A DNA stretch of 64,000 bases from a virus (IMGVR_UViG_3300028048_000066:64001-128000); one strand, 5' to 3'; numbered from the stretch's first letter, positions 31,629-64,000 are shown. Translations and numbers: made by a program. Notes: generated from the letters alone by a model not told the origin.

Positions 31629-34600
31629 ATGGGTAAAATCAAAAGTATTTTAAATGAAGATTGTGACAATGGACAAGAAGAAGTCCTAGAACAAGCATTA
31701 GAGCAAGAAGAAAAATCCAAGAAAGAAATGGAAAAGGTTATGAAGGACAGAAGTAAAGATGCTGACCAAAAAGAACCTAAAGCACCAAAGACAAACGAGA
31801 TGGGATTAGTAGAGAGTTTATTAGAAGGAACTCAATATGAACTCAAGGAAGATGTTTATAGTTTGGATGTTAAAGACAGAAAAGAACTTGGTGGAATCAT
31901 TTCTAAATTAAAAGAGAATAAAATCAATTTCAAGATTTCAAGAAGTGTTAAAGAAGGTTTTAGATATACATTAAGTGTTAAGAAGTTAAATGAATCACAA
32001 CAACTTAATGAAATTTATCCTGATGTTTTAATTAAATATGTTGAGAGAGCAAAGAAAGACTTCCCAGAGTTAATTAGTTCAACACAAGCAGAATTAGATG
32101 CAAGTGATTCAAAAGCAAAAGACTATGTTATTTTAGGAAATTTCTGGAATAATTTTATGGAAGATGCTATTGATAAGTGGTCTGATAGTAGTGCATTATT
32201 TTTAGATGATAATTCAATGATGCCAATGCCTGAAAGTGTATGTAAGCAATTCCTTGTACATCTTTTTAATATTAAGAATTTAAATCTTTTATATGATTTA
32301 GATGTATATACTGCATTTGATGAATATATAGGTATGAAAGAAGATGGTGGAATATCTGATGAAGATATAATTAAATACATTGAAGAAAATAAGTGGTTTG
32401 AAAATGAAGAAGAGATAAAAGAAGACATTGATGACCAAGAAGAACCAGATTTCAACACTATGGCAATTGATGATATTTTCTACTATGTTGTAGGTAATAA
32501 TGATTTTGATGTATTTGATGATGAGGGATATTTCACAGATGCAGCAATGGAACACTACAATGAAGTAGCAAATGCATATGAAGAAAACACAGGAAATGTT
32601 TTTGATGCTTTATGTGAGAGAGAAAGATGTTTTAGACCAGATGATGATATTCAAGTTGGTGTTGATGGAACGCATTATGAACCACAAATTGATTATTATG
32701 CTGATACAGATATGAATAATGATATTATAACAGCAGTTGTAAAAGAACCAGGTAAATTAGCAGAAGTTAAGGATATTAAAAACACATTAAGAGGATACCA
32801 AAAGTTAGTAGATGGTTATATTGAATCTGTACCAATGCCTGGACTGGAAGATGATATAGATATTGTTATGAATGATGAGGGAGTTACATTAAATCTCCCT
32901 GCTAATATTGAAGTTCCTGATTATCGTACAACCCTTGTTGGTACTTTAGTTGCAGTTGGTCTCACACCAGATTTAACTTGGAGAAGTCTTACATATGAAG
33001 AGATTGATTATGCTGTTAAATTTTTCAATGAACACGATGTATCTGAGATAAATGGAAGTAGAAAAGCAACAGCAGAGTTAAGAAATAGATTTAACCTTCC
33101 AGATTTACCAGGTTTAGAAGAATCTAAAGAACTCAAGGAAGATGATGATATGTCTGATGAAGAATTAGCAGCAGAAGAAGAAAGAGAAAGAGCAGAGTTT
33201 GAAGCAAAAATCAAAGAGAGAAGAGATGCTATTATAAAGAAGAGAGAAGAGGCAAGAATCAGAAAAGAGAAAGCAGAACAAGCATTAGCAGAGATTGGCA
33301 ATGACTGGTCTTATACAAATCTATTTGATATTTTATATGAATCTGAATCTCTTGCTGGAGAACTTATCAGAGCAATGGATTTTGTTGAAATTAGTTATAA
33401 AGACAACGATGAAGTATTCTATTCTGGTGAAGGTTTAATTGATGATACAGCAAATGCAGCAGTATTTATTATGAAGTATACAGACACCTCTGAAGATGAT
33501 GAATATGGTGGAGAAGAGGATGACAAATTAAATATGTTATTTAAAGATATTGCTGGAGAACCAGACCACAATTTATATATAGATTTTATTGATGATGCTA
33601 AAGTACAATTAGCAAAAGTTATTGCATCACACCCTGAAATGATTGGCGATGATAATTACTATTCATTTAGCCAAGCAGAAGGTGAAGATTATATTATATA
33701 CAATGAATACTATGAAGTTTATGATGCAGAAGCAGATTTACCATACGATTTACAAGTACTTATTAACTGCGATATAATTGATTATCGTGAATTAGAAGAA
33801 ATTATTGGAGAGATGTATTCTAACTATTCTGATGGAGAATCTGCTGATGTAAGTGTTTATGATACATATATTTCAGTTGGTAATATTGGTGAGAATGCTC
33901 TAAATGGTGTTGACCTTCAAAACGAGATTGATAACTACTCCGATATGTTCTATAGCACAATGGATGAAGAATGTGTAGGAGCATTTGACAGGGGTGATGT
34001 TGGATATTTAGTAGATAATGGTGATATTGATAATAAATATAGTTGTGAAGTACTTGGAGAAAAGGACGGTAAAATATATATCAAAGGAAAGGTGATTGAT
34101 ATTGCTGCTTTAGTATATGACACAAGTGCTGATATTCAATATGGTGACATTGCATTTGATGGTGACTTTGACTATGACATTTTTGATGAAGAGGAAGAAG
34201 ATGAAGAGGAAGAAGATGTAGAAGAGTCATTAAAAGAAGATGTAGAATCAGAAGAAACTGAAGAAGAAGTTGCTGTAGAAGAAACAGAAGTTGAAGATAC
34301 TGATGTTAATGATGACGGTGCTATAGATACAGCAATTGACACAGAATTCATTAAATTAGAAAATACAAAATTTAACTGCTATGAAAACCTTGAAGAATGC
34401 AAAGATAGTATGTTGTTTGATTATGGTACTAATATTGCATCACTTTCACTTGAAGCACCAAACGGTAAAATATATTCGGTTGACTTAATGGTTGATGGCG
34501 AAGTGTATGTTGAGTATGACGATGATTATTATCGTAATGCAAGTGACTTCCCTGAGGAATTATACAATATGTTTGTAGATGGCACAGCATATGATAGTGA

Positions 34601-35813
34601 TGATGTTTACATTGATGATAATAACTGGTTTGAAGTATTGTTTTATGTCAATGGTTATTGTTATGATAGCGAGATGTTTGATGGTGATTCTGACCTTTCT
34701 ATGTATACAAAAGATGAACTTAAAGAAGGACTATTTGATTACTTGTCTCATTTTATTGAAACAGAGATTGAAAATGAAGCGGCCAATGAAAGACTAAAAA
34801 AAGTAGAGGCAGAGAGGGAAGCAGAGAAAGAAAGAATTAGAAACACAGCACACAAATATGACCTTCCAGATATATTTGATGACCTTGATGAGTCTTCTAG
34901 TGCTTTCAAGAAGTCAGTAAAACTTGGTGGAGAAAACACACAAGACTATCTTGATGGACAAGCAATAGGAAAAGTAGCAGACCCAGATGAAAAAGCAAGA
35001 CTAATTGCAGTAAAGAAACTTGAAAAATCTGGTAAGTTAGGAAATAGACCAACAGTTGCACAAGAGTTAAAGAGAAAAGTAGACCAAGTTGCACCTAACT
35101 ATGAAAAGAAAGCAGGTAAGTTTGCAAAGAAAACTGGTATGACAGAAGAAACAGAATTAAATGAAATGGCAAAACTTCCTTACTATGTTCTTGCTTACAA
35201 ACTTGGTGAGGTTATGTGGTCAATGAATAATGAAGAAGCATATTACGATTCAGGTTGGTTATATTACTGGGGAGATGATATTGAAACAGTAAATGATGCA
35301 AAAGATTACTTCAATACAAAAGAAGACTATGAAGAATTAAAAGAAGTATTTGAAAGCATCTACAGTGACAAAGAATATCACGATGATGGTTTATTCACAA
35401 ATAGACAAGACATTGTAGATTATGCACACCAAATTGATAAGAAGTTAGGTCTTGAACCAATTAAGAACTATGGTGAAATCAAAAATGAAGGTGGAGATGA
35501 CCCATACGCAGAGTCTTGTGAAAACTGTGAAGAAAAGAAAGAGGAAATCAAAGAAGACCTCAAAATCTTAGCAGACATCAATGATTATCAACCTTGGTCT
35601 GGTGCAGTAGATTTCTATTATGAAATTGTTGATGCAGACAAGTTATATGATTTAGAGTTCATACTTGAAGACATTTATCCAGACGGTCTTACAATGACAC
35701 AATTAAATGACTTATTATGGTTTGAAGAAGATTGGTTAAGAGATATGTTAGGTATGAAAGAAGATAAATCAGAAGACGATACTGATGACATTGATGATAG
35801 ATTTTTAGACTAA
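31629..35813 (+). CDS. Very acidic 1394-aa multi-domain putative internal virion protein (contains a DUF3846-like domain; many L/I-x-E sites)
   Basis: Late motif and AGGAG RBS; DUF3846-like block at 32724-33035; linkers ESLLE, LNESQQLNE, LEESKELKED, EESLKED, LNEM, IKED. Confidence 0.75.
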   Translation: MGKIKSILNEDCDNGQEEVLEQALEQEEKSKKEMEKVMKDRSKDADQKEPKAPKTNEMGLVESLLEGTQYELKEDVYSLDVKDRKELGGIISKLKENKINFKISRSVKEGFRYTLSVKKLNESQQLNEIYPDVLIKYVERAKKDFPELISSTQAELDASDSKAKDYVILGNFWNNFMEDAIDKWSDSSALFLDDNSMMPMPESVCKQFLVHLFNIKNLNLLYDLDVYTAFDEYIGMKEDGGISDEDIIKYIEENKWFENEEEIKEDIDDQEEPDFNTMAIDDIFYYVVGNNDFDVFDDEGYFTDAAMEHYNEVANAYEENTGNVFDALCERERCFRPDDDIQVGVDGTHYEPQIDYYADTDMNNDIITAVVKEPGKLAEVKDIKNTLRGYQKLVDGYIESVPMPGLEDDIDIVMNDEGVTLNLPANIEVPDYRTTLVGTLVAVGLTPDLTWRSLTYEEIDYAVKFFNEHDVSEINGSRKATAELRNRFNLPDLPGLEESKELKEDDDMSDEELAAEEERERAEFEAKIKERRDAIIKKREEARIRKEKAEQALAEIGNDWSYTNLFDILYESESLAGELIRAMDFVEISYKDNDEVFYSGEGLIDDTANAAVFIMKYTDTSEDDEYGGEEDDKLNMLFKDIAGEPDHNLYIDFIDDAKVQLAKVIASHPEMIGDDNYYSFSQAEGEDYIIYNEYYEVYDAEADLPYDLQVLINCDIIDYRELEEIIGEMYSNYSDGESADVSVYDTYISVGNIGENALNGVDLQNEIDNYSDMFYSTMDEECVGAFDRGDVGYLVDNGDIDNKYSCEVLGEKDGKIYIKGKVIDIAALVYDTSADIQYGDIAFDGDFDYDIFDEEEEDEEEEDVEESLKEDVESEETEEEVAVEETEVEDTDVNDDGAIDTAIDTEFIKLENTKFNCYENLEECKDSMLFDYGTNIASLSLEAPNGKIYSVDLMVDGEVYVEYDDDYYRNASDFPEELYNMFVDGTAYDSDDVYIDDNNWFEVLFYVNGYCYDSEMFDGDSDLSMYTKDELKEGLFDYLSHFIETEIENEAANERLKKVEAEREAEKERIRNTAHKYDLPDIFDDLDESSSAFKKSVKLGGENTQDYLDGQAIGKVADPDEKARLIAVKKLEKSGKLGNRPTVAQELKRKVDQVAPNYEKKAGKFAKKTGMTEETELNEMAKLPYYVLAYKLGEVMWSMNNEEAYYDSGWLYYWGDDIETVNDAKDYFNTKEDYEELKEVFESIYSDKEYHDDGLFTNRQDIVDYAHQIDKKLGLEPIKNYGEIKNEGGDDPYAESCENCEEKKEEIKEDLKILADINDYQPWSGAVDFYYEIVDADKLYDLEFILEDIYPDGLTMTQLNDLLWFEEDWLRDMLGMKEDKSEDDTDDIDDRFLD

Positions 35814-35844
35814 TTAAAAGAAAGGAAATAAAGGAGAATATAAA

Positions 35845-37071
35845 ATGAAACTTTTAGAAGGAAAATTAACATTGAATGAAGAACAAGTTGAATTAAAACC
35901 ACTTGAAGAAACTAAATATTCAATCAAATATTGGTATGATGAAGATGCAAGAGATTTGGGTGAACCAGATGACTATGATGAAACATTTGATAATCTAGTT
36001 GATGCAAAGAAACAAGCAGATAGACTTTTTGATAAGGAAGGTTATGCAAGTGTAGAAATATATGATGAAAATGATAAAGTTGTATATGGAAGATACCCAG
36101 AAGAGTATGAAGAATCATTAAAAGAAGCAAAGAAGAGCATTAAAGAAGCAATAAAGGTTGAACACCCAGATGATTATGATTTTAATGATGTTGTAAAAAT
36201 ATTCTATGACCAATATTATAAAACATATAAGCATTCACCAAAAGATGAAGTAAAAGAATTTAAGAAGTTTGTAGATTTCTTAATTAAGTCTGGATTACTT
36301 GACAAAGATGTAGTTAAATCTTGGGGTGAGATTAAATTAGAATCTCTTAAAGAAGCAAACGATGATGATAAGAAAGATGACAAGAAGAAGGATGACAAAA
36401 AGTCTTCAAAGAAAGATGATAAGAAAGAAGATGAAGAAGACATTGACATTGAAGATGAAGTAGATATTGATGTAGAAGATGACAAAGACCTTCCAGATGT
36501 AGATGTTGATGATATGCTTTCATTAGATGATTTAGATATTGATGCCGAGAATGATTTAGATATTGACATTGATGCAAATAATGAAGAAGATGTGCCAGAA
36601 GAGATTGTAACAAATGCAAAAGCAATGAGTATTAGTGATATAGTAAGAAATGAGTTTGATTCTATTGATGCTCTTAAAGGTGTTATTGCAACTTTAACAT
36701 TAACAAACGATGATATTAACGAAGATGATGAGAAAGTCATTGATATTCTTAATGAAATTGTTGACCTTAAACTTGAAACAGTCGGTATGCTAAACAAAGC
36801 ACTTGAAATCACAGATGGAGATTTAGTTGATTCTATGTTAGATGGTGCAGATAAAGCAGAAGAAATTATTGCTGATACAGATGATGAAATTACAATAGAA
36901 GATGATATTGAAGATGTATTTGGTGCAGGACAAGATTTAGAAGTATCAGATAACTTTGATGTAGAAAGAGATAACAAAGAAAAGGGTCTATTTGATTTGG
37001 ATGATATTGATGCATTACCAGATGAAGAAGAAGACAATGAGATAATCATTAAAGACAAAAAAACTAAATAA
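35845..37071 (+). CDS. Acidic putative head/scaffold-associated protein with ESLKE motifs
   Basis: N-terminal LLE/LNE; ESLKEA twice (36112, 36340); low-complexity KD tract. Confidence 0.7.
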   Translation: MKLLEGKLTLNEEQVELKPLEETKYSIKYWYDEDARDLGEPDDYDETFDNLVDAKKQADRLFDKEGYASVEIYDENDKVVYGRYPEEYEESLKEAKKSIKEAIKVEHPDDYDFNDVVKIFYDQYYKTYKHSPKDEVKEFKKFVDFLIKSGLLDKDVVKSWGEIKLESLKEANDDDKKDDKKKDDKKSSKKDDKKEDEEDIDIEDEVDIDVEDDKDLPDVDVDDMLSLDDLDIDAENDLDIDIDANNEEDVPEEIVTNAKAMSISDIVRNEFDSIDALKGVIATLTLTNDDINEDDEKVIDILNEIVDLKLETVGMLNKALEITDGDLVDSMLDGADKAEEIIADTDDEITIEDDIEDVFGAGQDLEVSDNFDVERDNKEKGLFDLDDIDALPDEEEDNEIIIKDKKTK

Positions 37072-37095
37072 TAAATATAAATAGGAGAGAAAGGT

Positions 37096-37506
37096 ATGTT
37101 TACAATTTCAAACAATAACATAATTACTTTAACCAGAGGTGATGAGGTTACTACTCCTATTTTTATTAACTGGGGAACACAATTAGTCCCAGTAAGATAT
37201 GAACTACAAGAATATGATGAGTTGTTATTCTGTTTATATGAACCAGGATACAAAGAAAGACTTATCCTAAGAAAAGTGTATACAAGAGATGACTTAAATA
37301 AATATGGAGATGTTGTATTACATTTGGATAGAAGTGATACAATAAATCTTTTAGCAGGTTGTTATTATTACGAAGTTGATGTTATTAGAAGAGTAGTAGA
37401 AGATGATTCAAGTGACAGTGATAGTTCAGATTCAAGTGATGAACCTGAAATAGAGGAAGTATATAACACAGTAGTTCCTAGAACAAAATTCTTTATAGTG
37501 GAGTAA
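37096..37506 (+). CDS. BppU-N-like baseplate/fibre-associated protein
   Basis: ITLTRGD...V.L...DT..L..G.YYYEV pattern. Confidence 0.5.
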   Translation: MFTISNNNIITLTRGDEVTTPIFINWGTQLVPVRYELQEYDELLFCLYEPGYKERLILRKVYTRDDLNKYGDVVLHLDRSDTINLLAGCYYYEVDVIRRVVEDDSSDSDSSDSSDEPEIEEVYNTVVPRTKFFIVE

Positions 37507-37510
37507 GATT

Positions 37511-40500
37511 ATGAATTATATTTATGGACAATTAAATCAAAAAGTAGTAAAGATTGAATATGAAGGTATTTCAACAGATACATCTACTACAAGTGTAGAC
37601 AATAAAGGGTGTGCTATTGGTGTAGATGTAAGATGTGTGCCATATTCTTTACTTATAAATGACGAAGGAAGACAAACATCCTACAATGGAAGTAGTGAAG
37701 TTGCATTCTCTTTGCATAATTATACAGTTTCAAAGTTAGATGATGCAGGAGAGGGCAATGTTGCTGCATATGAACTCAAAAAAGACGGTGTAAAAATTGG
37801 AGATACTATTGAAATTCCAACACAAGCACCTATTACAAGTGTTTCATTAGATGAAGATGATGGACACTTCACTTTAATATTCACAACAGCAGATGATTCA
37901 TTTGAAGTAAGTGCAGATGACCTTATTATGAGTTGTGAAGGAAGTGAGTACATACTTGTAGACAGAGTAGAAGGAAGTAACACATATACAATATCATTAA
38001 ATATTGATGATTTAAAGAGTGAGTTAGATATTAGTGGTATTGAAGGTGACATTGATTCACTACAAGACAGAGTAGATATTTTAGAAAGAGATATAGCAAC
38101 AAAGCAAGATGCGTTAGAAGCAGGTGATAATATTTCTATCAGTGGAGGCGTTATAAGTGCTGTAGACACAACTTACAGTGCTGGTAATGGTTTATCATTA
38201 GATGGAACTCAATTTAGTGTAGACACGACTACAATCGCTACAAAGGGTGATGTAGATACAAAACAAGATGTATTATCAGAAGCACAACTCAATGCAGTCA
38301 ATAGTGGAATCACAACAGCAAAGAGAGAAGGATATGATGCTACAGTTACAACAGTAGGAACAATTACAACAACAACTTTACCTACAATTAACAATAGTAT
38401 TACATCTTTGGGCAACCAAATTGATGAAGTTAAAAATGACTTAGATACAGTAGAAGGTGACATTGAAGATGAAGTATCAGATAGACAAGATGCAGATGAT
38501 GTATTAAGTGGAAGAATTGATGATGCAGAAACAGCAATTGCAGGAAAACAAGATACATTAACAGCAGGTGCTAATATTACAATTGAGAATAATGAAATTA
38601 GTGCAACAGATACTACATATACAGCAGGTACAGGATTAGATTTAACTGGTACAGAGTTTAGTGTTGATGAAACAGTTATTGCTACAAAACAAGACTTAGA
38701 ATCAAAGCAAGACACATTAACACAAGCACAACAAGATGCAGTAGATAGTGGAATTACAGCAACCATATTAAGTGAAATGCAAAGTGATATTGCAGGTAAG
38801 CAAGATACTTTAACCTTTGATGCAGAACCAACAGAAGATAGTACAAATCCTGTAACAAGTGGTGGCGTATTTACTGCATTAGAAGGCAAACAAGACACAC
38901 TTACTGCTGGTGAAGGGATTACTATTGAAGGTAATGAAATCAGTGCAGAAGGAAAAGAATATTTTGCAGGAACTGGTTTATCACTTACTGGTGTAGATGA
39001 AGATACATTTGCAGTTGACACAGATGTAATTGCAACCAAAGAAGATTTATCTGGAAAGCAAGATACATTGGATGCAGGAGATAACATTATTATTAGTGGT
39101 AATGAAATCAGTGCAATTGATACAACTTATGAAGCAGGATTTGGTATTAAGATTGCAGATGACTCAGATGAAGATGAAATAAGTGCAATTAGTATTGATG
39201 AAGGCATTGTTGCTACAAAATTAGATTTAGAAGGAAAACAAGATGTATTAACTGCTGGAGATAACATTACAATTGAAGATGGTGTTATTAGTTCTAGTGG
39301 TAAGATTTATAGTGCAGGATATGGAATTGACCTTGTTGGTTACGATGATACATTCCAAATTGATACAGAGGTAGTTGCAACAAAGAATGATTTATCAGGA
39401 CTTGAAGGGGAAATTTCAGATATAGAGACAGCATTAGATGGTAAACAGGACACATTAACTCCAGAGCAATTAGCAGAATTAAACAGTGGTATTACAGAAC
39501 AAAAGGTTGCAGATTATGATGCACACATTAACAACCAAGTTATTCACTGCACACAAGAAGATAAAGATTTATGGGATAGTAATCATCTTGCACCAGAAGG
39601 TGAATTAAATATTGAGTTCAATGCTGATGTTCCATCTACAGTGGAAACAGCACCACTACAAAACATTTTAGTAGGAGATAAGAACTACAAGATTTACGGA
39701 AGTGGTGACTCTGGTGGTAGTTCTGGTGGTGGAGACAGTGTTATTACAAATGAAACAATATTACCAAGCAGTTTAACATATGCAAATCCAGGCGGTATGT
39801 ATGCAGTTAATTTAGAACCAGAACAAAAGACATATATTCAAGTTGGTGATGCGGTTAAGAATCTTTATTTTGATACTAGAACAACTCCTGATATTGCTAA
39901 ATTAGATTTCAAAGGTGCAGAATATACAACCCTTGTAAGATTTGTTTCTGAGGATAACTACGAATGGAGACAAGTATATACTTATTCATCAGAACCAGCA
40001 GAACCAAAGACTGGTGAATTGTGGTTAGATATTCAATATGATACTGATGAAGAAACTCATATAACAACAGTTACAAAGACATTGAAAAGATTCAGTGGAG
40101 ATATTTGGGCAGTAGTAGAATACACAACAGAACTACCACAAAATCCAGAAGTGGGTCAATATTATATTAGTAATACTAGCAGTAATGTATTTATTTATAC
40201 AACAGTGGTTAGAAACTTACTTGCATCCGCAGGTGGTATGTGGGGAGGTGCAACAATAAGATTTGCTTATGGAACAGAACCAGATGAATTTAAGTATTAT
40301 TTATTGAATGGTGTTATTTATTATTATGACAATGGTGCTTGGGTAAATACACATTATGTATTAGATGACTCAAACCCAGAAGAGGGACAACACTTCCTTA
40401 AAGCAGAACCAAGCAATAAATATACACTTAAGAAATATACAAACGGTGCTTGGTATACAATTTTCTCAGAAAAATCTATTACCTTGCGTGGTACAGATAT

Positions 40501-41491
40501 GAATACAACCTCTTACTATATGGGTTATGATGATGAAACCTCTATTGTTAGATATATTGGTAATAGTAGTTATACAATAGATGTCACAGGAGACCACTCA
40601 GGTCCAATACCAAATACAGCATATGATATTTATGAAATCCCATTTGATGTAGTAAGTGAAGCACCATCTAATATTGGACATTTATGGTGGGAGGAGGATA
40701 CATACTCATCTTTTATTAAAGGTTATGCTGAACTAAGTAGTATAGTGTACAGTTCTATTGACTTGTTAAATGAGGATATAAGCATTTCAGAATCAGAAGG
40801 TCGTATTATAAGAAACAACGGACAACGAGAGAGTGTTGTAGAAGTACCTGTTTACTTTACTCCAATGGGTTCAATTGGATTATTTACTGGTTGGTATTTC
40901 AAATCACTAAATTTAAATGCTGTTGGTGTTGGAACTGAACCTTTCACAGTAAATGTTGAAACTTCTTATAAGTTTAAGGTAGATTCCATACCACAAAATG
41001 TGTTTACAGATTCATTTGCTTATGAGTATTTTGTCCCATCAAGAACACAAGATTTATTCTTTACAACACAGGGTGGTAATGTAAAGAAAGAAGATGTTTA
41101 TGGCATATATACATATTTATCAACATTATTCTTATATAAATGTCTCGGTTTAATTTTACCAATTGACACACATACATATACAATAGAAACAAGTGATTGG
41201 GTAGCAGCAAGTTCAGATTATAGTCCGTTTACATATACATATACAACACCAATAATAATGAATGGACAAACAGTAGAAGATTTAACAATGTTCAAAACTA
41301 TTGAGATTGCACCACAACAAGCAGTTTTAATTGCAAAAACAGGAATTGCTATTGTAGATGTAGTAGATGTTGATGGCGATGCAAATGTTGTATTTGGTGT
41401 ATTAACACAACCAAGTGAAGCAATAGATGTTGTAGTATATAATCGTGGTATAATAGAAGACTTTGTTGGAATGCGTTATGATATGAATTAG
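37511..41491 (+). CDS. Long tail-fibre-like protein with KQD-initiated repeats
   Basis: Nine KQD(T/V/A)L modules and AG.GL.L.G..FSVD repeats; distinct aromatic C-terminal region. Confidence 0.75.
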   Translation: MNYIYGQLNQKVVKIEYEGISTDTSTTSVDNKGCAIGVDVRCVPYSLLINDEGRQTSYNGSSEVAFSLHNYTVSKLDDAGEGNVAAYELKKDGVKIGDTIEIPTQAPITSVSLDEDDGHFTLIFTTADDSFEVSADDLIMSCEGSEYILVDRVEGSNTYTISLNIDDLKSELDISGIEGDIDSLQDRVDILERDIATKQDALEAGDNISISGGVISAVDTTYSAGNGLSLDGTQFSVDTTTIATKGDVDTKQDVLSEAQLNAVNSGITTAKREGYDATVTTVGTITTTTLPTINNSITSLGNQIDEVKNDLDTVEGDIEDEVSDRQDADDVLSGRIDDAETAIAGKQDTLTAGANITIENNEISATDTTYTAGTGLDLTGTEFSVDETVIATKQDLESKQDTLTQAQQDAVDSGITATILSEMQSDIAGKQDTLTFDAEPTEDSTNPVTSGGVFTALEGKQDTLTAGEGITIEGNEISAEGKEYFAGTGLSLTGVDEDTFAVDTDVIATKEDLSGKQDTLDAGDNIIISGNEISAIDTTYEAGFGIKIADDSDEDEISAISIDEGIVATKLDLEGKQDVLTAGDNITIEDGVISSSGKIYSAGYGIDLVGYDDTFQIDTEVVATKNDLSGLEGEISDIETALDGKQDTLTPEQLAELNSGITEQKVADYDAHINNQVIHCTQEDKDLWDSNHLAPEGELNIEFNADVPSTVETAPLQNILVGDKNYKIYGSGDSGGSSGGGDSVITNETILPSSLTYANPGGMYAVNLEPEQKTYIQVGDAVKNLYFDTRTTPDIAKLDFKGAEYTTLVRFVSEDNYEWRQVYTYSSEPAEPKTGELWLDIQYDTDEETHITTVTKTLKRFSGDIWAVVEYTTELPQNPEVGQYYISNTSSNVFIYTTVVRNLLASAGGMWGGATIRFAYGTEPDEFKYYLLNGVIYYYDNGAWVNTHYVLDDSNPEEGQHFLKAEPSNKYTLKKYTNGAWYTIFSEKSITLRGTDMNTTSYYMGYDDETSIVRYIGNSSYTIDVTGDHSGPIPNTAYDIYEIPFDVVSEAPSNIGHLWWEEDTYSSFIKGYAELSSIVYSSIDLLNEDISISESEGRIIRNNGQRESVVEVPVYFTPMGSIGLFTGWYFKSLNLNAVGVGTEPFTVNVETSYKFKVDSIPQNVFTDSFAYEYFVPSRTQDLFFTTQGGNVKKEDVYGIYTYLSTLFLYKCLGLILPIDTHTYTIETSDWVAASSDYSPFTYTYTTPIIMNGQTVEDLTMFKTIEIAPQQAVLIAKTGIAIVDVVDVDGDANVVFGVLTQPSEAIDVVVYNRGIIEDFVGMRYDMN
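38102..39500 (+). repeat. Intragenic fibre repeat array
   Basis: Repeated KQDTLTAG.NITI..N.ISA.DTTY.AG.G and KQD.L...Q..AV.SGIT units. Confidence 0.8.
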
Positions 41492-56866: not shown

Positions 56867-56885
56867 AATTTTATGCAAAAAGTTG

Positions 56886-56914
56886 TTGACATTTCATCTT
56901 AAAAGTAGTATAAT
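56886..56914 (+). promoter_or_regulatory. sigmaA-type promoter
   Basis: TTGACA-17 nt-TATAAT. Confidence 0.85.
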
Positions 56915-56943
56915 ATAACTAGATAATAAAGGTGAGGTGTCTT

Positions 56944-58074
56944 ATGGTTTACAATATTCCACTTTGTAATGAAGAACTTTTCTTGAAGAAGGTCAAGAGA
57001 ATTATGAAGAAGTGTCATAATGGCGAAGTAGTAGTTTTGCCAATGGACACCATTTTGGTTAAAGATGAAGATAGAAAAATCTCTTACAAGTGTAGACAAT
57101 ATGAAGTAAGAGGTGAATATAAGATTGAAGGTTGGGAATTTGTAGCAGAGATTACTCACAAGGACTCTGGCAATGTTATTAGATGTATCAAATCAGACTA
57201 TTCAGATACAATTGCTCAAAGATATGGTGAAAAGATGTCTACTTGTGAACATTGTGGTAAGAGATTGTTTAGAAGAAATACATTTATTATTAGAAACCTT
57301 AATACAAACGAATTGAAGCAAGTGGGTTCAAGTTGTGTTAAAGAATACACAAATGGATTGAGTGCTGAATTGTGTGCTAATATCTCTTCTTTCTTTGCTG
57401 ATATTGAAGATGAGTTGATGTATAGAGATGAGTTTAGATGTTCATACTCTTCTAATACATACTTTGATAGAATCTCATCCTTGAAACTTATGTATTATAT
57501 TGTTAAGAATCAAGGATATGATAAAGAAACAACAAAACAAGTATTTATTGAAACATATAGAGAGATGGACTATAAAGACATTGATGCTCTTGTAAATGAT
57601 GGAGAGTTGTTAAATGTTTCTAATTGGTTGGAGAATAAATCTAATTCTAATGCCTATTGGTGTTCTTGTAAGACATTATATAAAAGTGATGAAGTAGAGT
57701 TTAGAGATTATAATTATTTACTTTCTATGTTCTCTGTATACTTCAAGGAACAATTTGAATCACAAAAACAAAAGAATGATGCAAAAGACATCAATGAGTA
57801 TGTAGGACAAGTTGGAGATAGAATCACTTTTACAGCACACCAAGTTAGATATTTATTTGGTAAAGGTAAATATAGTTATTACGGACCAGAAGTATACTTA
57901 GTAGAATTGCTTGATAAAGAAGGACACACATACATTTGGTCTACATCTTCTTATATCAACATTGGAGATATTATTAAAGCAACCATCAAAGAACATAAAG
58001 ACTATAGAGGAACAAAGCAGACAGTCATTACAAGAGGCACAATTCTCGGTAATATAAAGAAACAAGAAGCATAA
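56944..58074 (+). CDS. Conserved phage protein with Zn-binding segment and C-terminal OB-like fold
   Basis: CEHC...R.R......QVGSSC; YVGQVGDR...ATIKEH..YRG.KQT.ITR. Confidence 0.65.
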   Translation: MVYNIPLCNEELFLKKVKRIMKKCHNGEVVVLPMDTILVKDEDRKISYKCRQYEVRGEYKIEGWEFVAEITHKDSGNVIRCIKSDYSDTIAQRYGEKMSTCEHCGKRLFRRNTFIIRNLNTNELKQVGSSCVKEYTNGLSAELCANISSFFADIEDELMYRDEFRCSYSSNTYFDRISSLKLMYYIVKNQGYDKETTKQVFIETYREMDYKDIDALVNDGELLNVSNWLENKSNSNAYWCSCKTLYKSDEVEFRDYNYLLSMFSVYFKEQFESQKQKNDAKDINEYVGQVGDRITFTAHQVRYLFGKGKYSYYGPEVYLVELLDKEGHTYIWSTSSYINIGDIIKATIKEHKDYRGTKQTVITRGTILGNIKKQEA

Positions 58075-58193
58075 TACCTCTGTGAGTGATTGTAGAGGCA
58101 TTGTAAGAGCATTTAGAGTAAAAGTAGATAAGTATATCAAAAAACATATAAAATAGATTATAGAGCAAATAAGAAGGTGAAAGGAGAATAGAT

Positions 58194-58559
58194 ATGAAAA
58201 GTAAAGTTTATACATTATATCAATTACCAGCAAATAGTAAAAAACTCTTTAGGTCTTATAATAGTAAATCACCTATTGACATCTTTGATTATGTAGGTGT
58301 ATATCAAGGAGAGATGGATAGTGAAATGAATGACATTAGTATTTGTGATGAGTTGTTTGAGGTATTCAACATCAGACATCCTAATGGTTTTGCTGGACAC
58401 AGTATGAGTACAAGTGATGTAATCTGTATTGATACATTTGAAGGTGATAGTTGTGTGGGTCGTAGTTTCTATTATTGTGATAGTTTTGGTTGGAAAGACA
58501 TAACAGATGAAATAGAAACAGAGAAAAAATATGACAACATTCATTGCATAGTATTGTAA
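58194..58559 (+). CDS. YodL-domain protein
   Basis: YTLYQL...Y..VY.G...LFEVFN..HP..F.GHSMS.SDVI...YYCDSFGW. Confidence 0.85.
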   Translation: MKSKVYTLYQLPANSKKLFRSYNSKSPIDIFDYVGVYQGEMDSEMNDISICDELFEVFNIRHPNGFAGHSMSTSDVICIDTFEGDSCVGRSFYYCDSFGWKDITDEIETEKKYDNIHCIVL

Positions 58560-58582
58560 AATTCTCAAAAAAGTGGTATAAT
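58554..58582 (+). promoter_or_regulatory. sigmaA-type promoter with extended -10
   Basis: TTGTAA-17 nt-TATAAT, TGn before the -10. Confidence 0.65.
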
Positions 58583-58704
58583 ATAAATAGAAGGATTTTT
58601 TATGTTGACTGCAAATCATAGGTGTCAGCATATTAAATCATATAGAAAAAGTATTGGTTCTGCAAAATGAAAAATATGCACAATAAAATAAAAGTGTTCA
58701 CCAA

Positions 58705-58719
58705 TGCTAAATTAAGTGA
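58705..58719 (+). promoter_or_regulatory. Putative phage late promoter (TGCTAAATTAAGTGA)
   Basis: Same variant as 15495. Confidence 0.65.
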
Positions 58720-58774
58720 AATAAAACATTATATAAACATTATACTAACTATATAATGTAAAGGAGAAAAGAAA

Positions 58775-59767
58775 ATGAGAAAAAAAGGACTCTTAGTAGC
58801 AACAATTGTTATGGTACTCGTATTGGCAGTATCATTAACAACAGCAACTTATGCTTGGTTCAGTGCAACTGCTTCTGCAACTGTTGAAACAATCAGATTA
58901 GAAGCAACAGCAGCAGATGGTCTTATCATTGGTGCATTAGGAACAGCAACAGCACAAGCATCCAGAACTTATACTGATTACAGATACGGTGACATTGTAT
59001 GGGATGGTTCAAAGTGGAATGGTGACTCCTATATGGGAACAAACCTTAACTTCCAAATCCAAAATGGTGAAAATGTTGACAATATGGTAATTGGTGCAAG
59101 TAAGGCAGTATCTTATACAACAACATCTATTAGTGGAACAGGTGATGCAGTAGGTACAACAATTCCAGCAAATAGTTGGTATAAGGCAAATGGCGATGCA
59201 GCAACATTGGATACGGGTTCTATTGCAGTAGCAAATGTACAAGAAGACTATATTGACTTTGATTTAGCAGTAACAACTTCTAAAGCAAACAGTGTAAAAC
59301 AAGCATATATGACATTACAAATTGTTCCAACTGCAACAACACAAATCAAGATGGCAGCAGCAATTCACTTCTATCTTGCAATTTATGATGGTACAACAAC
59401 TACAGAAATCACAAATACAATTGCAAATAAAGGAATGAGTGCATATCCAGGAAAAGTACAAAGCAATAACTTTGGTGACAATGTAACAGCAGGAACATAT
59501 GTAAGCACAAATGGAACAACACTTGATACACATCACACAACCGCAGCAGGTGATTGGTATTATATCGTACCACTCTTTGATAGTGCAACAGCAATGACTC
59601 CATTTGAAGACTTAATTCAAATCAAGTTAATTGTTTGGATTGAAGGTACAGATGATGCTTGTATTATTGCAAACGCAGGAACTGGTGCAGATGTTAAGAT
59701 TTTCTTTGACTATGATGCAGCACAAACTTATCAATGGTCAAATGGTGTTATGACATTAGCAGCATAA
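58775..59767 (+). CDS. Exported protein with a SipW-type signal peptide (TasA/CalY-like)
   Basis: MRKK + hydrophobic core + TTATYAWF; Ala/Thr-rich; C-terminal L.VWIEG.D..C. Confidence 0.7.
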   Translation: MRKKGLLVATIVMVLVLAVSLTTATYAWFSATASATVETIRLEATAADGLIIGALGTATAQASRTYTDYRYGDIVWDGSKWNGDSYMGTNLNFQIQNGENVDNMVIGASKAVSYTTTSISGTGDAVGTTIPANSWYKANGDAATLDTGSIAVANVQEDYIDFDLAVTTSKANSVKQAYMTLQIVPTATTQIKMAAAIHFYLAIYDGTTTTEITNTIANKGMSAYPGKVQSNNFGDNVTAGTYVSTNGTTLDTHHTTAAGDWYYIVPLFDSATAMTPFEDLIQIKLIVWIEGTDDACIIANAGTGADVKIFFDYDAAQTYQWSNGVMTLAA

Positions 59768-59925
59768 AAAATTAAAAAGTAGCAAACAAAAACAAATAAA
59801 ACTTTTTTCTTACAAGTATATATAGATAGATACAATACATAAAGGGCAAGAAGCATAGTAGAGTATCGGTGTCATTACATAAGAGAGCAAGAAGCATTAG
59901 TAAGGCATTTTAATGAAAGGTAATA

Positions 59926-59960
59926 ATAAGACCACTCTTAAAAATGGGGTGGTCTTTATT
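59926..59960 (+). terminator. Intrinsic terminator
   Basis: AAGACCACTC/GGGGTGGTCTT stem plus T-rich tail. Confidence 0.75.
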
Positions 59961-59996
59961 TATTTGAAAAAAAATTATCAATGATGTAAAAAGTAG

Positions 59997-60025
59997 TTGA
60001 CTTTTCTTTCAAAAGGTAGTATAAT
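59997..60025 (+). promoter_or_regulatory. sigmaA-type promoter
   Basis: TTGACT-17 nt-TATAAT. Confidence 0.8.
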
Positions 60026-60060
60026 ATAATCAGATTAAACTTATAGGAGATTTATTTTTT

Positions 60061-60474
60061 ATGGCAACAAGAGAAGAAATGAAAAATGAAGCGATTAGAA
60101 GATTACAAGAACTTGATATTTATAAACCATATATCAATGGATTCAAAACAAAGGCACAAAAGGTTTGTTTCTATGAAAACTTTGGTGGATACTGGGTTTG
60201 GCAAGAACCAGAAATTGAAGCAAAGATGAAAGACCTTGAAGAGAGATATGAATGTGTTGTTTATGCTATCACACACGAGTTTGCAGAGTTTGGTGAGTGT
60301 TGGTCATTCTTGTTTGTATCCAAGTATGATGAAGAATGGGAATATGAATTTGAAAGAATGGATAGAGTCAACTTCACTGCCGATGCATATGTTTGGAATA
60401 AGACAGAAGATTTTGTTGAAGGTGGTTCAATTTGTGTTCAATCATTTGGTGGTGGAATCAGAAGAGTTGGTTAA
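60061..60474 (+). CDS. Conserved hypothetical phage protein
   Basis: AGGAGA RBS; VYAITH....GE..S.L.VS...EEW...AYVWN...GG..RV pattern. Confidence 0.75.
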   Translation: MATREEMKNEAIRRLQELDIYKPYINGFKTKAQKVCFYENFGGYWVWQEPEIEAKMKDLEERYECVVYAITHEFAEFGECWSFLFVSKYDEEWEYEFERMDRVNFTADAYVWNKTEDFVEGGSICVQSFGGGIRRVG

Positions 60475-60488
60475 TAAGGGGGTGCAGT

Positions 60489-60782
60489 ATGGATAAGAAG
60501 AATATCGTTATTTTAGTGTTAGTAGTAGTAACAGTAGCATCTTTAATTTGCACCATTGTATTAGCAACAAACACAAATAAAGATAAAGATGATTACAATG
60601 ATTACAATATTGCTTATGTAAAAATTGGAGACAGTTGGAATTTTGTAGCAATAAGCAACTATAAGATTAAAGAGGGTGTAGTAGAATTGACAGATGCAGT
60701 TTATAGAGTAAAAATGAAATTAAGTATGGATAACTGTATTCTTATGAAAGATGATACTATGTATTATGAATTAACACACTAA
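60489..60782 (+). CDS. Membrane-anchored hypothetical protein
   Basis: N-terminal transmembrane segment; ATG 60489. Confidence 0.7.
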   Translation: MDKKNIVILVLVVVTVASLICTIVLATNTNKDKDDYNDYNIAYVKIGDSWNFVAISNYKIKEGVVELTDAVYRVKMKLSMDNCILMKDDTMYYELTH

Positions 60783-60795
60783 TAAGGAGAAGACT

Positions 60796-61089
60796 ATGGG
60801 AGATTTAAATTTTGATGTAGTAGAGAGCAAATTAAGACAAGGTGTTGACAATGTTATTATTTTACCATATTGGTGTGGTAGAACAATCAGGTTGTTTTCT
60901 ATTGGTGATTATGTATATGAAGCATACTTATCATATTTTAACAAGAGTGTAGACGAGATTACACAAGAAGACATTGACAGCATTGATGCAGAAGATTTCT
61001 ATCGCTTCTTATATGAGTACTTTAGAGAAGATGTAGAAGATGATGATTTTGATGAAGAAATTACATTAAGTGATATTGAAGATATGTAA
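60796..61089 (+). CDS. Small acidic protein (paralog A)
   Basis: LNFDVVE...EITQEDID.ID...FY.FL..Y. Confidence 0.75.
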   Translation: MGDLNFDVVESKLRQGVDNVIILPYWCGRTIRLFSIGDYVYEAYLSYFNKSVDEITQEDIDSIDAEDFYRFLYEYFREDVEDDDFDEEITLSDIEDM

Positions 61090-61096
61090 TAAAACC

Positions 61097-61111
61097 CGCT
61101 AAATTAAATAG
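61097..61111 (+). promoter_or_regulatory. Putative late promoter variant (CGCTAAATTAAATAG)
   Basis: GCTAAATTAAAT core in a 46-nt intergenic gap. Confidence 0.55.
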
Positions 61112-61135
61112 AATGATATTAAGAAGAGGTGAATT

Positions 61136-61492
61136 ATGAGTTTGAATTTTGATGTAGTAGAAGAGAAGTTAATGAATGATGATGAGGAAATCATCTTATT
61201 CTATGATATGTTAGATTGGGATGTTGATGTATTAGGTGATTATAGTGGTAGATATGTTAGAAAAGCATATGATGTTGAATATCCTATTTACTATATTAGC
61301 AAATATGTTTATGCTTCATACTTAAAGAAGAAGGCAGAGGACATTACTCAAGAAGATTTAGATAACATTGATGTTGACAAGTTCTATGACTTCTTGTGTG
61401 ACTATTATATTGATGAAGCAATGAATTATGCAGCAGACCATAATAAATATGATGACTATGATGGTGGATGGGATGATAGAGATGACTATTAG
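61136..61492 (+). CDS. Small acidic protein (paralog B)
   Basis: LNFDVVE...DITQEDLDNID...FY.FL..Y. Confidence 0.75.
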   Translation: MSLNFDVVEEKLMNDDEEIILFYDMLDWDVDVLGDYSGRYVRKAYDVEYPIYYISKYVYASYLKKKAEDITQEDLDNIDVDKFYDFLCDYYIDEAMNYAADHNKYDDYDGGWDDRDDY

Positions 61493-61539
61493 TATTTATG
61501 TCAATTAAACCTTACATAAAAAGAGAAAGTTGAGAAATT

Positions 61540-61576
61540 AAGAATCAAGATTTTTTGTAGGTCTTGGTTCTTTTTT
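61540..61576 (+). terminator. Intrinsic terminator
   Basis: AAGAATCAAGA/TCTTGGTTCTT stem plus T tract. Confidence 0.75.
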
Positions 61577-61579
61577 AAT

Positions 61580-61594
61580 TGCTAAATTAAATGA
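61580..61594 (+). promoter_or_regulatory. Putative phage late promoter
   Basis: TGCTAAATTAAATGA after a terminator. Confidence 0.7.
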
Positions 61595-61622
61595 TAGAAA
61601 ATAACGGTAAGGTGAAGTTTAT

Positions 61623-64000
61623 ATGAAGATACTAAAAGATTATAATCCTAAAAATGTTAAGAAAGCATACAAAGTATTTAGAGTAAAAGATGGAAAATTA
61701 TATCCACCTATGGTTGCCAATGCTAATAACGAACCTACTCCTATTGGTGTGTGGTTAGGTGCAGAAGAAGGTGCGTTTGCAGGATTATCTAAAACAGGTA
61801 GACCACAAGTTAAATCAATTGGTAGTGGTACTCTTTCATATAGACCAGGATGGCATTTAGGTGATATTCCAAGAGCAAAACAATTTGATAGATTAAACAA
61901 AGAAACAGGGGAAGTGGAATTCCCTAAAGATTTTGTTTGGGCAGAATGTGAATATGTAGCAGATAAAGACTACCAAAAAGACAGCGATGAACAAGGACAT
62001 ATGAGAATAGGCAAAGATGGTAAACCATATAGAAGTGACAAATATCAACACTCACTTGCTGGACTTCAAAAGATTCCAGACAATGGTTATTACAAATATA
62101 GAACAAACCCTAATCCAGACACTGTACCGTGGGTTATAACAGGTGCTATTAAGGTTGACAAGTTATTAAGTGATGATGAGGTCAACTCTATTCTTAAACA
62201 AAATGGGATTGAACCTATACATAGACAAGGTGGAGATAAATCATTAAAAGAATTAGGTCTTAATGAAAGTTTAATTAAGGAAACAAAGAGTGTTAAGTCA
62301 TTAAGCACAGATGATTTATTGTCAAGATTTAGTGAGAGTGATAGTATTAAAGTTTATGATACTCCACAGTCTGGTTCTCAATATATTCTCCCTAATGGCA
62401 AGTTTTTATTCTGGGGGAAAGATTTTATTCACTCATCTTTAATGGAGTATATTTATGTATCAATTTTAGGTGGAAAGACAGATGATAAAGGAAGGGTTAA
62501 AGACCATCAAAAACTTTACTATGTTATGGACTACTTGGAAGAAAACTTGGGTTGGATAAGAGTAAATGATAATGTTTCTGGTTATCACAGAACTTCTTAT
62601 ATTGCATTAGATAAAATAGCACCAACACAAGACCAATATAACTCATTGGAAATATTTTTAGATGTATGCTATGAAAAAGGCAATGGTGGTGTTGAGATAA
62701 ACAGAATGGATTTAAGAAAAAATAAAACATATTCATTTGATGACTATATTGCAGATGATATTATAAAGAAGATAAAGCAGTCATATTCTAGTGGAGTACT
62801 ATATGAAAGTTTGAAAGAAGATATAAACAATAAAGAGTTATCTAATGAGAAAAAGGAACTTATTGTTAAAACACTCAAAGACCACTTTGGAAAGGACATA
62901 ACAGAAGATTCCCAGTCTTATATATTTTTCCCAAATGGGGATATTATTAGATGTGAGTTCCATCCAGACTTAATTGATTATTTATGTGATTGTGGTTTAT
63001 TTACTGATGAAGAAGCATACATTATTGATGGTATGGGTGCAAGTTTATTTGTTAAGTGGTTTAATTGTGTAAGAGCAACAAAGTGTGTAGGAGAAAACTA
63101 TATTGAATTACCACACGACACTTTAACATCTGCTCAATATTCAAATATATTAGAACTTTTAGATATAATGTCATTAGATGTTGATATTGATGAAGTTGAA
63201 ATAAGTGCATACACAAGTGTTAGAAATGGTGAAAGTAAGTATTATAGTTTCTATGAATATACACCAGATGAAATATTAAAGAAAATTAAGAGATATTATG
63301 CAAGTGGTGTGTTATATGAAAGTTTGAATGAAGATAAACAACTTTCAAAAGAAGAAACACTTAAACTTATGGATGATAAATTTGGTCAAAAAGAGTTATA
63401 TCTTTGGTCAACATATATTCTTCCTAATGGTCATTTCCTTAACCCAGATAATGGTTGGGATGAGTTTGATGATGAACCCGAATATGAACATAGTGATTTT
63501 ATATATAACTACTACAATGATTATGGTGAAACCTTGTTTGATGATTGTATTAAAATGAATGTAAATTATCCATTCTTAACTTTACCTAAACAACCAACAC
63601 AACAACAATGGAATAGAGTAGAGGAAATCATTGATAATTATGATGATGGACTAGATGCAGACGGTGGTGTAGATGATTTATTTGATTGGGCAGAAGTTGA
63701 CTCTGAAAAAGAAAGAGGCATTATAAGAGGGTTTCAAAGACCTTTACTAATTGACCTTGAAGGTATTGGTGCTAAAATTGTTGATGCTTCTTGGGGTGGA
63801 AGAGAAATAGTAAAAGAGATGAAGAAAGCAAAATCTAGTGGTGGTTTTTATGAAAGTTTAAAAGAAGATAAAAACCAAAAACAAACTATAATTGCCTATC
63901 ACGGAACAAATAATAAGTTTGATTCATTTAGAGGTGGTAGAATTGATTGGTTCTCACAAGATTTAGATTTGGCACATCACTATGGAGATAGAATCAAGAA
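61623..64000 (+). CDS. 3'-truncated polyvalent multi-domain protein (>792 aa): RPGWH domain, three YI(L/F)(F)PNG repeats, start of an ADP-ribosyltransferase-like domain
   Basis: Hand-translated; open from ATG 61623 (AAGGTGA RBS) to the window end; YHGTNNKFDSF...WFSQDLDLAHHYG from 63897. Confidence 0.85.
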   Translation, partial: MKILKDYNPKNVKKAYKVFRVKDGKLYPPMVANANNEPTPIGVWLGAEEGAFAGLSKTGRPQVKSIGSGTLSYRPGWHLGDIPRAKQFDRLNKETGEVEFPKDFVWAECEYVADKDYQKDSDEQGHMRIGKDGKPYRSDKYQHSLAGLQKIPDNGYYKYRTNPNPDTVPWVITGAIKVDKLLSDDEVNSILKQNGIEPIHRQGGDKSLKELGLNESLIKETKSVKSLSTDDLLSRFSESDSIKVYDTPQSGSQYILPNGKFLFWGKDFIHSSLMEYIYVSILGGKTDDKGRVKDHQKLYYVMDYLEENLGWIRVNDNVSGYHRTSYIALDKIAPTQDQYNSLEIFLDVCYEKGNGGVEINRMDLRKNKTYSFDDYIADDIIKKIKQSYSSGVLYESLKEDINNKELSNEKKELIVKTLKDHFGKDITEDSQSYIFFPNGDIIRCEFHPDLIDYLCDCGLFTDEEAYIIDGMGASLFVKWFNCVRATKCVGENYIELPHDTLTSAQYSNILELLDIMSLDVDIDEVEISAYTSVRNGESKYYSFYEYTPDEILKKIKRYYASGVLYESLNEDKQLSKEETLKLMDDKFGQKELYLWSTYILPNGHFLNPDNGWDEFDDEPEYEHSDFIYNYYNDYGETLFDDCIKMNVNYPFLTLPKQPTQQQWNRVEEIIDNYDDGLDADGGVDDLFDWAEVDSEKERGIIRGFQRPLLIDLEGIGAKIVDASWGGREIVKEMKKAKSSGGFYESLKEDKNQKQTIIAYHGTNNKFDSFRGGRIDWFSQDLDLAHHYGDRIK

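Follow-up and report, generated by a model that had tools for sequence, protein, structure and literature searches.

Candidate prohead protease sites at the domain junctions of late polyproteins in an uncultured phage

Introduction

The sequence IMGVR_UViG_3300028048_000066:64001-128000, a stretch of 64,000 nucleotides referred to below as the window, comprises bases 64001-128000 of one 148,163-bp genome of an uncultured phage. Three of its large genes, P0001, P0002 and a gene for a protein of 2037 amino acids (aa), encode multidomain proteins in which the same short linker, ESL(K/N)E, returns several times. This raises the question of what the pentapeptide does and which enzyme might recognise it. 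A first-pass annotation of the window took the three proteins for strings of effector or anti-defence domains that are packaged into the capsid, released at the linkers by the maturation protease and ejected with the DNA. Here we report that the motif is strongly enriched in late proteins, that it is located at domain junctions and that the genome encodes exactly one prohead protease, a member of the phage T4 gp21 family. With moderate confidence, we read the motif as the site of this protease and the polyproteins as precursors that would be cut, packaged and injected.

The genome is complete: its ends overlap by 127 bp, and the source collection rates the record as a complete virus with terminal repeats. 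The G+C content is ~30% and 164 of 171 open reading frames (ORFs) are encoded on one strand. A megablast search with 12 kb of the window found no close relative among phage isolates.

Results

The ESL(K/N)E motif is enriched in the late block

The coordinates that the first-pass annotation gave for the three ORFs are correct, as are its six ESL(K/N)E positions: 34224 (P0001 aa 866), 36112 and 36340 (P0002 aa 90 and 166) and 62805, 63318 and 63852 (aa 395, 566 and 744 of P0003, the in-window part of the 2037-aa protein, whose gene starts at 61623). The four variants that it listed (ESLLE, LNESQQLNE, LEESKELKE and LNESLIKE) are all present. Altogether, ESL[KN]E occurs 10 times in the whole proteome, compared to 0.25 copies expected from composition; shuffling within proteins yielded 0.23-0.26 copies on average and never more than 2-3. 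ESLKE is the top 5-mer among the 46,884 residues of the proteome.

A wider form of the site, S-[LIVM]-[KNQ]-E, here called the strict site, is found 36 times in the genome, where ~10 are expected. All of the excess lies in the late block, which runs round the contig ends and contains 31 sites (4.5±2.2 expected), and the remaining genome contains 5 (5.4±2.3 expected). For single proteins, enrichment is clear in P0002 and in the 61623 protein (each P<0.0005) and weaker in P0001 (P ~0.03). A second flavour of the site, K-K-S-I-K-E, is present in P0002 and in two large proteins encoded outside the window. The earlier remark that the motif was not noticed in the fibre proteins is borne out, since the three fibre-like proteins encoded at 37511, 50281 and 53153 contain no ESL[KN]E; strict sites are likewise missing from the fibre-like proteins, the portal and the capsid protein.

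The serine residues of the sites are encoded by both TCN and AGY codons and the leucine residues by both CTN and TTR codons. Because the site codons vary, it is the peptide and not the DNA that is under conservation, and we rejected conservation of a linker at the DNA level as the main cause.

Sites are located at domain junctions

The 2037-aa protein starts with a domain A, which is followed by three tandem copies of a domain B (B1 to B3). In the first-pass annotation the linkers of this protein were placed exactly at domain boundaries, and this agrees with the ends of homology, with stand-alone homologues and with AlphaFold2 models. Domain B is about 170 aa long and conserves I-L-P-N-G-x-F, a His, I-R-x-N, L-P...T-x-x-Q and a C-terminal helix ending S-G-x-L-Y-E. 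Stand-alone versions (160-195 aa) stop 2-12 residues after the conserved L-Y-E, where ESLKE begins. In other phages, polyproteins have domain A at four different positions, and what comes after it is in every case an ES[LM]..ESLNE linker or the protein end. Further downstream, the GNAT domain of the 2037-aa protein is flanked by sites at aa 1463 and 1588, and a domain common to another polyprotein begins directly after I-N-E|S at aa 1231. The spacings of 171 and 178 codons reported for the sites in the B region are right; the first one is 182 codons and not 180. The three sites separated by 171 and 178 codons each mark the end of a B copy; as the copies are paralogous, these sites are not independent events.

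In the AlphaFold2 model of the first 792 aa (45-row alignment), B1 and B2 are confident and the predicted local distance difference test score (pLDDT) is below 50 at the linkers aa 199-222 and 392-404. The model of P0002 shows a confident α/β domain at aa 21-89 and pLDDT below 50 at aa 90-111, which includes a doubled site; the next helical segment ends with the third site. Thus, the sites are in low-confidence linkers between confident domains, as the first-pass annotation had expected of a structure prediction. The first cargo domain of P0002 recurs in a polyprotein of the related phage G008 and there also ends in ESLKE. In an unselected test, 12 of 33 sites were 12 residues or fewer from the end of a local similarity (6.6 expected, P ~0.01).

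The genome encodes a single gp21-type protease

The head module is located just past the window end and consists of a weak terminase match, a portal gene, a gene for a 529-aa protease-scaffold fusion and a gene for a Gp23-family capsid protein, 3.5-10 kb downstream of the 2037-aa gene. The prohead protease that the first-pass annotation had asked for is thus present. It is the single head protease gene of the genome (Pfam PF03420 Peptidase_S77, the T4 gp21 family; aa 30-169, 2.2e-13), with a score of 50.6 bits for the protein and of 53.2 bits in a six-frame genome search that found one copy (cut-off 27). Searches of the genome for S78 and ClpP proteases found none, and no protein of the genome, the polyproteins included, contains an HExxH or HExxxH motif. 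Since the polyproteins are without a peptidase motif, any processing must be carried out by a separately encoded protease.

In T4, gp21 cleaves behind the Glu of L/I-x-E. By such cuts Alt and the internal proteins are trimmed, targeting peptides of 10 residues are taken off and the scaffold is cut to pieces (PMC9026906). The protease found here aligns to T4 gp21 (PDB 5jbl), with GELGHP opposite GELNAP and VSSRGTG opposite VASRGLG. We take these segments to hold the catalytic His and Ser positions of gp21; the 5jbl chain is presumably an active-site mutant.

The first-pass annotation had also suggested looking for the motif in the scaffold and in the capsid propeptide. The scaffold half of the 529-aa protein contains four strict sites where 0.29 are expected, and the scaffolds of related phages are dense in L-x-E|S/A. 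The capsid protein, which belongs by profile to the T4-type Gp23 family (Pfam PF07068, 9e-31) and aligns to mature T4 gp23, has the site in the form L-N-E|A: a Y/F-L-N-E|A/S followed by F-x-N is located at ~aa 48 and is conserved in nine related loci. In the alignment, its position fits the N-terminus of mature T4 gp23, and we predict a propeptide site here, near the N-terminus. The nearest capsid proteins (28-34% identity) are those of the Bacillus phages SP-15 and vB_BceM-HSE3, the Listeria phage LIS04 and a Streptococcus agalactiae phage. Judged from these patterns, the core S-[LIV]-[KN]-E, mostly in the form E-S-L-K-E followed by D, S or A, is probably the recognition site of the S77 protease.

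P0001 and P0002 resemble carriers with exchangeable cargo

Homologues of P0001 conserve aa 5-128 and aa 1070-1393, and the middle part varies. They contain two to nine sites of the [ES]-S-[LI]-[KN]-E type each and conserve an N-terminal K-S-I-[LT]-x-E. In P0002, the N-terminal 12-mer is followed in the homologues by unrelated sequence, ranging from nothing to ~400 residues; 10 of its 12 positions are invariant in five aligned homologues. The junction before the C-terminal part reads ESL[KT]EA in all four aligned cargo-bearing homologues, P0002 included. This C-terminal part is conserved and acidic and is modelled by AlphaFold2 as a helical hairpin flanked by disorder. Asp and Glu together make up 26% of P0001 and 33% of P0002, with long low-complexity acidic stretches. 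Pfam detects no enzyme family in P0002 and only DUF3846 in P0001. From their sequences, both proteins appear to be acidic carriers with conserved ends and a swappable middle. The sequence checks are favourable to the earlier view of packaged precursors; the description as effector strings is too simple for these two carriers, and neither could be given an effector activity.

Of the 10 candidate polyproteins, six, P0001 and P0002 among them, have an N-terminal peptide that ends in [LIVM]-[KNRQ]-E at aa 8-14; of 161 other proteins, eight do (P=1.7e-5). With the looser pattern [LIVM]-x-E the difference is not significant (18/55 vs. 30/116). In sequence, these peptides resemble the T4 capsid-targeting sequence of ~10 residues, which ends in a protease site.

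The 2037-aa gene encodes a polyvalent protein

The 61623 gene ends at genome position 131736, 3,736 nt past the window end. Its product contains an ADP-ribosyltransferase (ART) domain, ART-PolyVal, at aa 951-1045 (4.8e-21, 76.4 bits, cut-off 31.2). Weaker ART-PolyVal matches are located at aa 749-930 (4.7e-4, below the curated cut-off) and at aa 1589-1882. The GNAT domain (aa 1491-1568; 23.8 bits, cut-off 23.6) lies next to an ART. By its domain content, we class the product as a polyvalent protein sensu Iyer et al. 2017: it combines several unrelated conflict-type domains, and its gene is located among late and virion genes. An embedded peptidase is missing (no HExxH or HExxxH); the assignment stands because such a peptidase is common in polyvalent proteins but not defining. 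ART and GNAT domains are typical of phage polyvalent proteins and speak for the earlier view; the three B units are paralogous copies of one domain.

Homologues of domain B number 213 among 1.84 billion representative proteins; some stand alone and others are parts of polyproteins. A Foldseek search with domain B returned no PDB match at E<=0.001, and the best Z of a wide VIA search (4.5) is within noise; five stand-alone homologues have no Pfam match. The 2037-aa gene is overlapped at its end by 11 nt by a 664-aa gene (genome 131726-133720; L001:6726-8720), the product of which begins with a domain B copy and could represent either one more cargo protein or an extension of the polyprotein.

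The motif is kept in related phages

Relatives were found via the protease and via domain A. In G008 (159 kb, 28% G+C), ESL[KN]E occurs 12 times (0.27 expected) and ESLKE is again the top 5-mer. Four copies (0.23 expected) are present in G007 (149 kb, 45% G+C) and two (0.07 expected) in G006, a 31.7-kb fragment. Because the G+C content of these phages differs widely (28% to 45%), they possibly have different hosts. Many metagenome homologues of domain B, P0001 and P0002 contain several copies of the motif as well, and modules are heavily shuffled within and between genomes. The contigs of the motif-rich metagenome polyproteins P0018 and P0019 end short of head genes. Among phage isolates, tblastn found no match for domain B or P0002; the single match for domain A was in an unrelated Roseobacter phage.

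A late promoter-like motif precedes polyprotein and head genes

The 15-nt motif TGCTAAATTAAATGA is present in 23 copies on the plus strand of the genome and in none on the minus strand. Copies are located at window positions 31554, 42353, 47275, 49975, 58705, 61097 and 61580 and at 16 further genome sites. A copy lies 34-74 nt before P0001, the 61623 gene and the genes for the portal and the protease-scaffold fusion; the motif also precedes three other polyprotein genes and is located 10-70 nt upstream of most late genes. It is unlike a sigma-70 promoter and is, from its distribution, probably a late promoter or the binding site of a late regulator. P0001 and the 61623 gene each have their own copy, as expected for genes in late-motif units. 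P0002, which had been listed as a third such gene, is without one and starts 31 nt after P0001. Near-consensus sigma-70-type promoters (TTGACA, 17-18 nt, TATAAT) precede a few small genes embedded in the late region (window ~56880-56930 and ~60010-60060; genome ~146000 and ~147600); early-type units are therefore interleaved with late ones.

Table 1. Features of the polyprotein genes in the window. Positions are counted from the first base of the window.
Feature	Position	Strand	Basis
Late promoter-like motif TGCTAAATTAAATGA upstream of P0001	31554..31568	+	same motif before portal and protease-scaffold genes
P0001, predicted 1394-aa acidic carrier polyprotein with DUF3846 at aa 367-464	31629..35813	+	ORF; Pfam 3.4e-16
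P0001 N-terminal 10-residue peptide ending I-L-N-E, resembling the T4 capsid-targeting sequence	31629..31658	+	
ESLKE site, P0001 aa 866-870	34224..34238	+	kept in the 77%-identical homologue P0164
P0002, predicted 408-aa carrier: N-terminal peptide, two small cargo domains, acidic spacer, conserved helical C module	35845..37071	+	
P0002 N-terminal 12-residue peptide ending L-N-E	35845..35880	+	homologue alignment
Doubled site ESLKE then KKSIKE, P0002 aa 90-101, after the first cargo domain	36112..36147	+	
ESLKE site, P0002 aa 166-170, before the conserved C-terminal part	36340..36354	+	homologue alignment
Late promoter-like motif upstream of the 2037-aa gene	61580..61594	+	motif search
First 792 aa of the 2037-aa protein	61623..64000	+	ORF, Pfam
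Domain A, aa 1-205, phrog_30118	61623..62237	+	profile match
Linker with SLKE, LNE and LIKE, aa 207-220, between A and B1	62241..62282	+	pLDDT <50 at aa 199-222
Three tandem ~175-aa domain B copies (aa 221-399, 400-570, 571-748), each closed by ESL(K/N)E	62283..63866	+	
Start of the first ART-like domain, aa 749 onward	63867..64000	+	ART-PolyVal 4.7e-4

Other repeated elements in late proteins

Genome positions 7286-10117 (L003:7286-10117) encode a 943-aa late protein with BspA-type leucine-rich repeats (LRR_5, 1.8e-84), flanked by modules common to polyproteins of other phages. A second protein with such repeats (440 aa) is encoded after the capsid gene; leucine-rich repeats are unusual for presumed head cargo. 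Two late proteins encoded on either side of the head module, at genome 1635 (L003:1635-5012) and 142858 (L001:17858-19180), have in common the N-terminus L-F-E-G-F-K-x-Y-Y-K-K/R-L and an internal domain, which may be another address or an assembly element. Five proteins with different bodies (window 43588, 44341, 45305 and 45825; genome 134313) carry a near-identical N-terminal peptide of ~17 residues, S-K-S/T-F/Y-I-x-K/S-I/L-I-P-F-I-T/D-N-M-R, possibly a tag by which they dock to the tail or baseplate. The 1326-aa fibre-like protein (window 37511-41491) contains six copies of G-K-Q-D-T-L-T, roughly 30-130 residues apart. KQDT occurs seven times in the proteome (0.6 expected), and the seventh of these stands immediately behind an ESLNE site of a polyprotein encoded outside the window.

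Discussion

A model for packaged and processed polyproteins

From the motif, its enrichment and placement at junctions, its occurrence in scaffold and capsid, the family of the protease and the conservation across the clade we infer cleavage, packaging, ejection and effector roles in the following way. The late genes P0001, P0002 and the 2037-aa gene, together with at least five genes outside the window, would encode modular precursors that are made alongside the head proteins. The short N-terminal peptide ending in [LI]-x-E, which is present in six of the 10 candidates and not in the 2037-aa protein, would bring the precursors into the prohead core, and the conserved C-terminal modules of the carriers perhaps help this uptake as well. 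Once activated, the protease would cut after the Glu at every junction and free domain-sized proteins of ~10-30 kDa, among them ADP-ribosyltransferases, a GNAT acetyltransferase and unknown domains. The freed proteins would stay inside the capsid and reach the cell along with the DNA, like T4 Alt and the internal proteins. The cutting step by itself seems somewhat better founded to us than this whole chain of events. An effector role for the cargo of P0001 and P0002 seems less certain than the chain, because both proteins are extremely acidic and could be core material. As a tentative extension, which we regard as possible, the clade might load its capsid with injected proteins by a common syntax consisting of a short conserved N-terminal address, interchangeable cargo domains in any number, each closed by an E-S-L-K-E cut site, and, in some carriers, a conserved C-terminal anchor.

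Several observations weigh against reading the motif as the site of the head protease in packaged precursors. The sites in the polyproteins prefer Glu at P5 and Asp at P1′ and those in the scaffold Lys and Ser, so that the two sets are similar and not identical; the stricter consensus of the polyproteins may reflect something beyond protease specificity. Some junctions of the 2037-aa protein are without a strict site, for instance at aa ~920-950, where only L-T-E is found, and the protein also has no targeting-like N-terminal peptide. Two strict matches in a neighbouring leucine-rich repeat protein fall within the repeats and are probably due to chance. Most metagenome copies of domain B are followed by other linkers, though these often contain L-K-E or L-N-E. 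G001, G002 and G009, which are less closely related and also have an S77 protease, are not enriched in the motif, which is therefore not universal among phages with this type of protease. Proteins of these polyprotein families were found in no cultured relative in our searches of isolates. Finally, both AlphaFold2 models have a low mean confidence (55-57), and domain A and B3 are unreliable in them.

Alternative explanations

Could the motif mark junctions that stay uncut, serving as a structural cap, a flexible joint or a joint that is friendly to recombination? The shuffling of modules would suit such a role, as would one KKSIKE pair with 18 identical nucleotides, the first Glu of the motif, which belongs to the conserved domain B end L-Y-E, and the P5 and P1′ preferences, which are unlike those of the scaffold sites. 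However, the codons of the sites vary widely and use both Ser codon families, which indicates that DNA identity is not maintained, and a passive linker needs no invariant pentapeptide across proteins that are 28-67% identical. Other multidomain late proteins, the fibres, are without the motif, and the same four-residue core is enriched in the scaffold and fits the L-x-E rule of a protease encoded nearby. We therefore regard an uncut junction as unlikely. Cutting by another protease, either a host enzyme acting after injection or an unrecognised phage enzyme, seems very improbable to us. The core of the motif corresponds to the L/I-x-E rule of S77 proteases and is common to the scaffold and the capsid propeptide, it is kept in related phages of 28% to 45% G+C, and neither an HExxH protein nor an S78 or ClpP protease is encoded in the genome. 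What would speak for a different enzyme is that P5 Glu and P1′ Asp are not preferred at the scaffold sites and that processing of polyvalent proteins was proposed to take place after delivery (Iyer et al. 2017; PMC5512222).

A further explanation accepts the head protease as the cutting enzyme and differs in the fate of the products: those of P0001 and P0002 would be core or scaffold-like material, comparable to T4 gp22, gp67 and gp68, and not injected effectors; cutting would serve to expel this material from the head or to leave acidic internal peptides there. The acidity and the low-complexity stretches of the two proteins are in line with this, and so are the lack of any detected enzyme family besides DUF3846 and the helical hairpin between disordered flanks in the C module of P0002; in T4, core proteins are cut into small fragments that mostly exit the head (PMC9026906). 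Swappable cargo accounts better for the hypervariable middles, in which unrelated folded inserts lie between conserved ends, and the confident α/β fold of the first P0002 cargo domain recurs in the polyprotein of another phage. The 2037-aa protein, which contains ART and GNAT domains, also falls outside this explanation. We give it a small but appreciable chance and retain processing, packaging and injection of the precursors as the preferred reading.

Comparison with known systems

The predicted system is similar to T4 head maturation in its Peptidase_S77 protease and Gp23 capsid, in the L/I-x-E site, at which cuts are predicted here, in the N-terminal peptides of ~10 residues that end in the site, in an ADP-ribosyltransferase among the presumed cargo and in a scaffold with multiple cuts, likewise predicted here. 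In T4, the cargo proteins are encoded by separate small genes, have their own targeting peptides and are only trimmed at their ends. Here, in contrast, up to about ten domains are combined in one precursor of up to 2037 aa with the site at the junctions, the consensus is longer (E-S-L-K-E) and the protease is fused to the scaffold. In the polyproteins of eukaryotic RNA viruses, which are an analogy only, a viral protease cuts one precursor at short conserved junction motifs into functional proteins. Proteases and viruses are unrelated in this case, and the purpose there is expression from one reading frame, whereas here it would be the loading of many proteins into the capsid via one precursor.

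The giant phages phiKZ, 201phi2-1 and SPN3US encode distant gp21 homologues (gp175/gp245) that cut head-internal proteins after S/A-x-E or A-x-E; long propeptides are cut several times in these phages and many of the cut proteins are ejected (PMC10052503, PMC9026906). In SPN3US, 13 of the 14 mapped cuts remove N-terminal propeptides that exit the head (PMC10052503). Cutting chains of independent catalytic domains at their junctions is not reported there (PMC10052503, PMC9026906), and the P3 residue is Ala or Ser, unlike the Leu or Ile found here and in T4.

Polyvalent proteins, which are found in conjugative elements as well as in phages, combine 2-15 conflict-related domains, are encoded near virion genes and are predicted to be packaged and delivered; ~36% of the members have a zincin-like metallopeptidase (PMC5512222). 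Their processing was proposed to occur via these embedded peptidases or, rarely, via a C-terminal assemblin-like peptidase domain (Iyer et al. 2017; PMC5512222). The 2037-aa protein is similar to them in its ART-PolyVal domain, which scores above the cut-off, and in the GNAT beside an ART, as in Iyer et al. 2017. It differs in that it contains no peptidase and instead bears a uniform candidate site for a head protease that is the product of another gene; neither conserved N-terminal peptides of the targeting type nor the carrier architecture is described in Iyer et al. 2017. Thus, the parts are known, namely the T4 protease rule, targeting peptides, injected Alt, the multiple cuts of giant phages and polyvalent proteins. 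Their combination appears to be new: full-text literature searches, which returned at most Iyer et al. 2017 and an unrelated preprint, found no description of peptidase-free polyvalent proteins together with junction sites for a separate capsid protease and carriers with swappable cargo.

Implications

On how giant polyvalent proteins get into virions, and on whether they act as entire chains or as fragments, the founding paper could offer no more than the suggestion of self-processing by embedded peptidases. The reading favoured here offers a concrete and testable route from gene to injected protein, and also a sequence rule for listing candidate injected proteins of uncultured phages. Many of the proteins on such a list would be uncharacterised domains like domain B, which are promising candidates for a function in anti-defence or host take-over. 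The system would be nature's version of an engineered T4 approach, where foreign proteins are loaded into heads with the help of a targeting peptide and a protease site. If the loading syntax outlined above is true, one address would load a whole string of domains, new domains could slot in without evolving their own targeting and the cut pieces would presumably be easier to eject than a chain of 2037 aa. The injected proteome of such phages could then be readable from sequence alone, and polyvalent proteins generally may be processed by capsid proteases and not by peptidases of their own.

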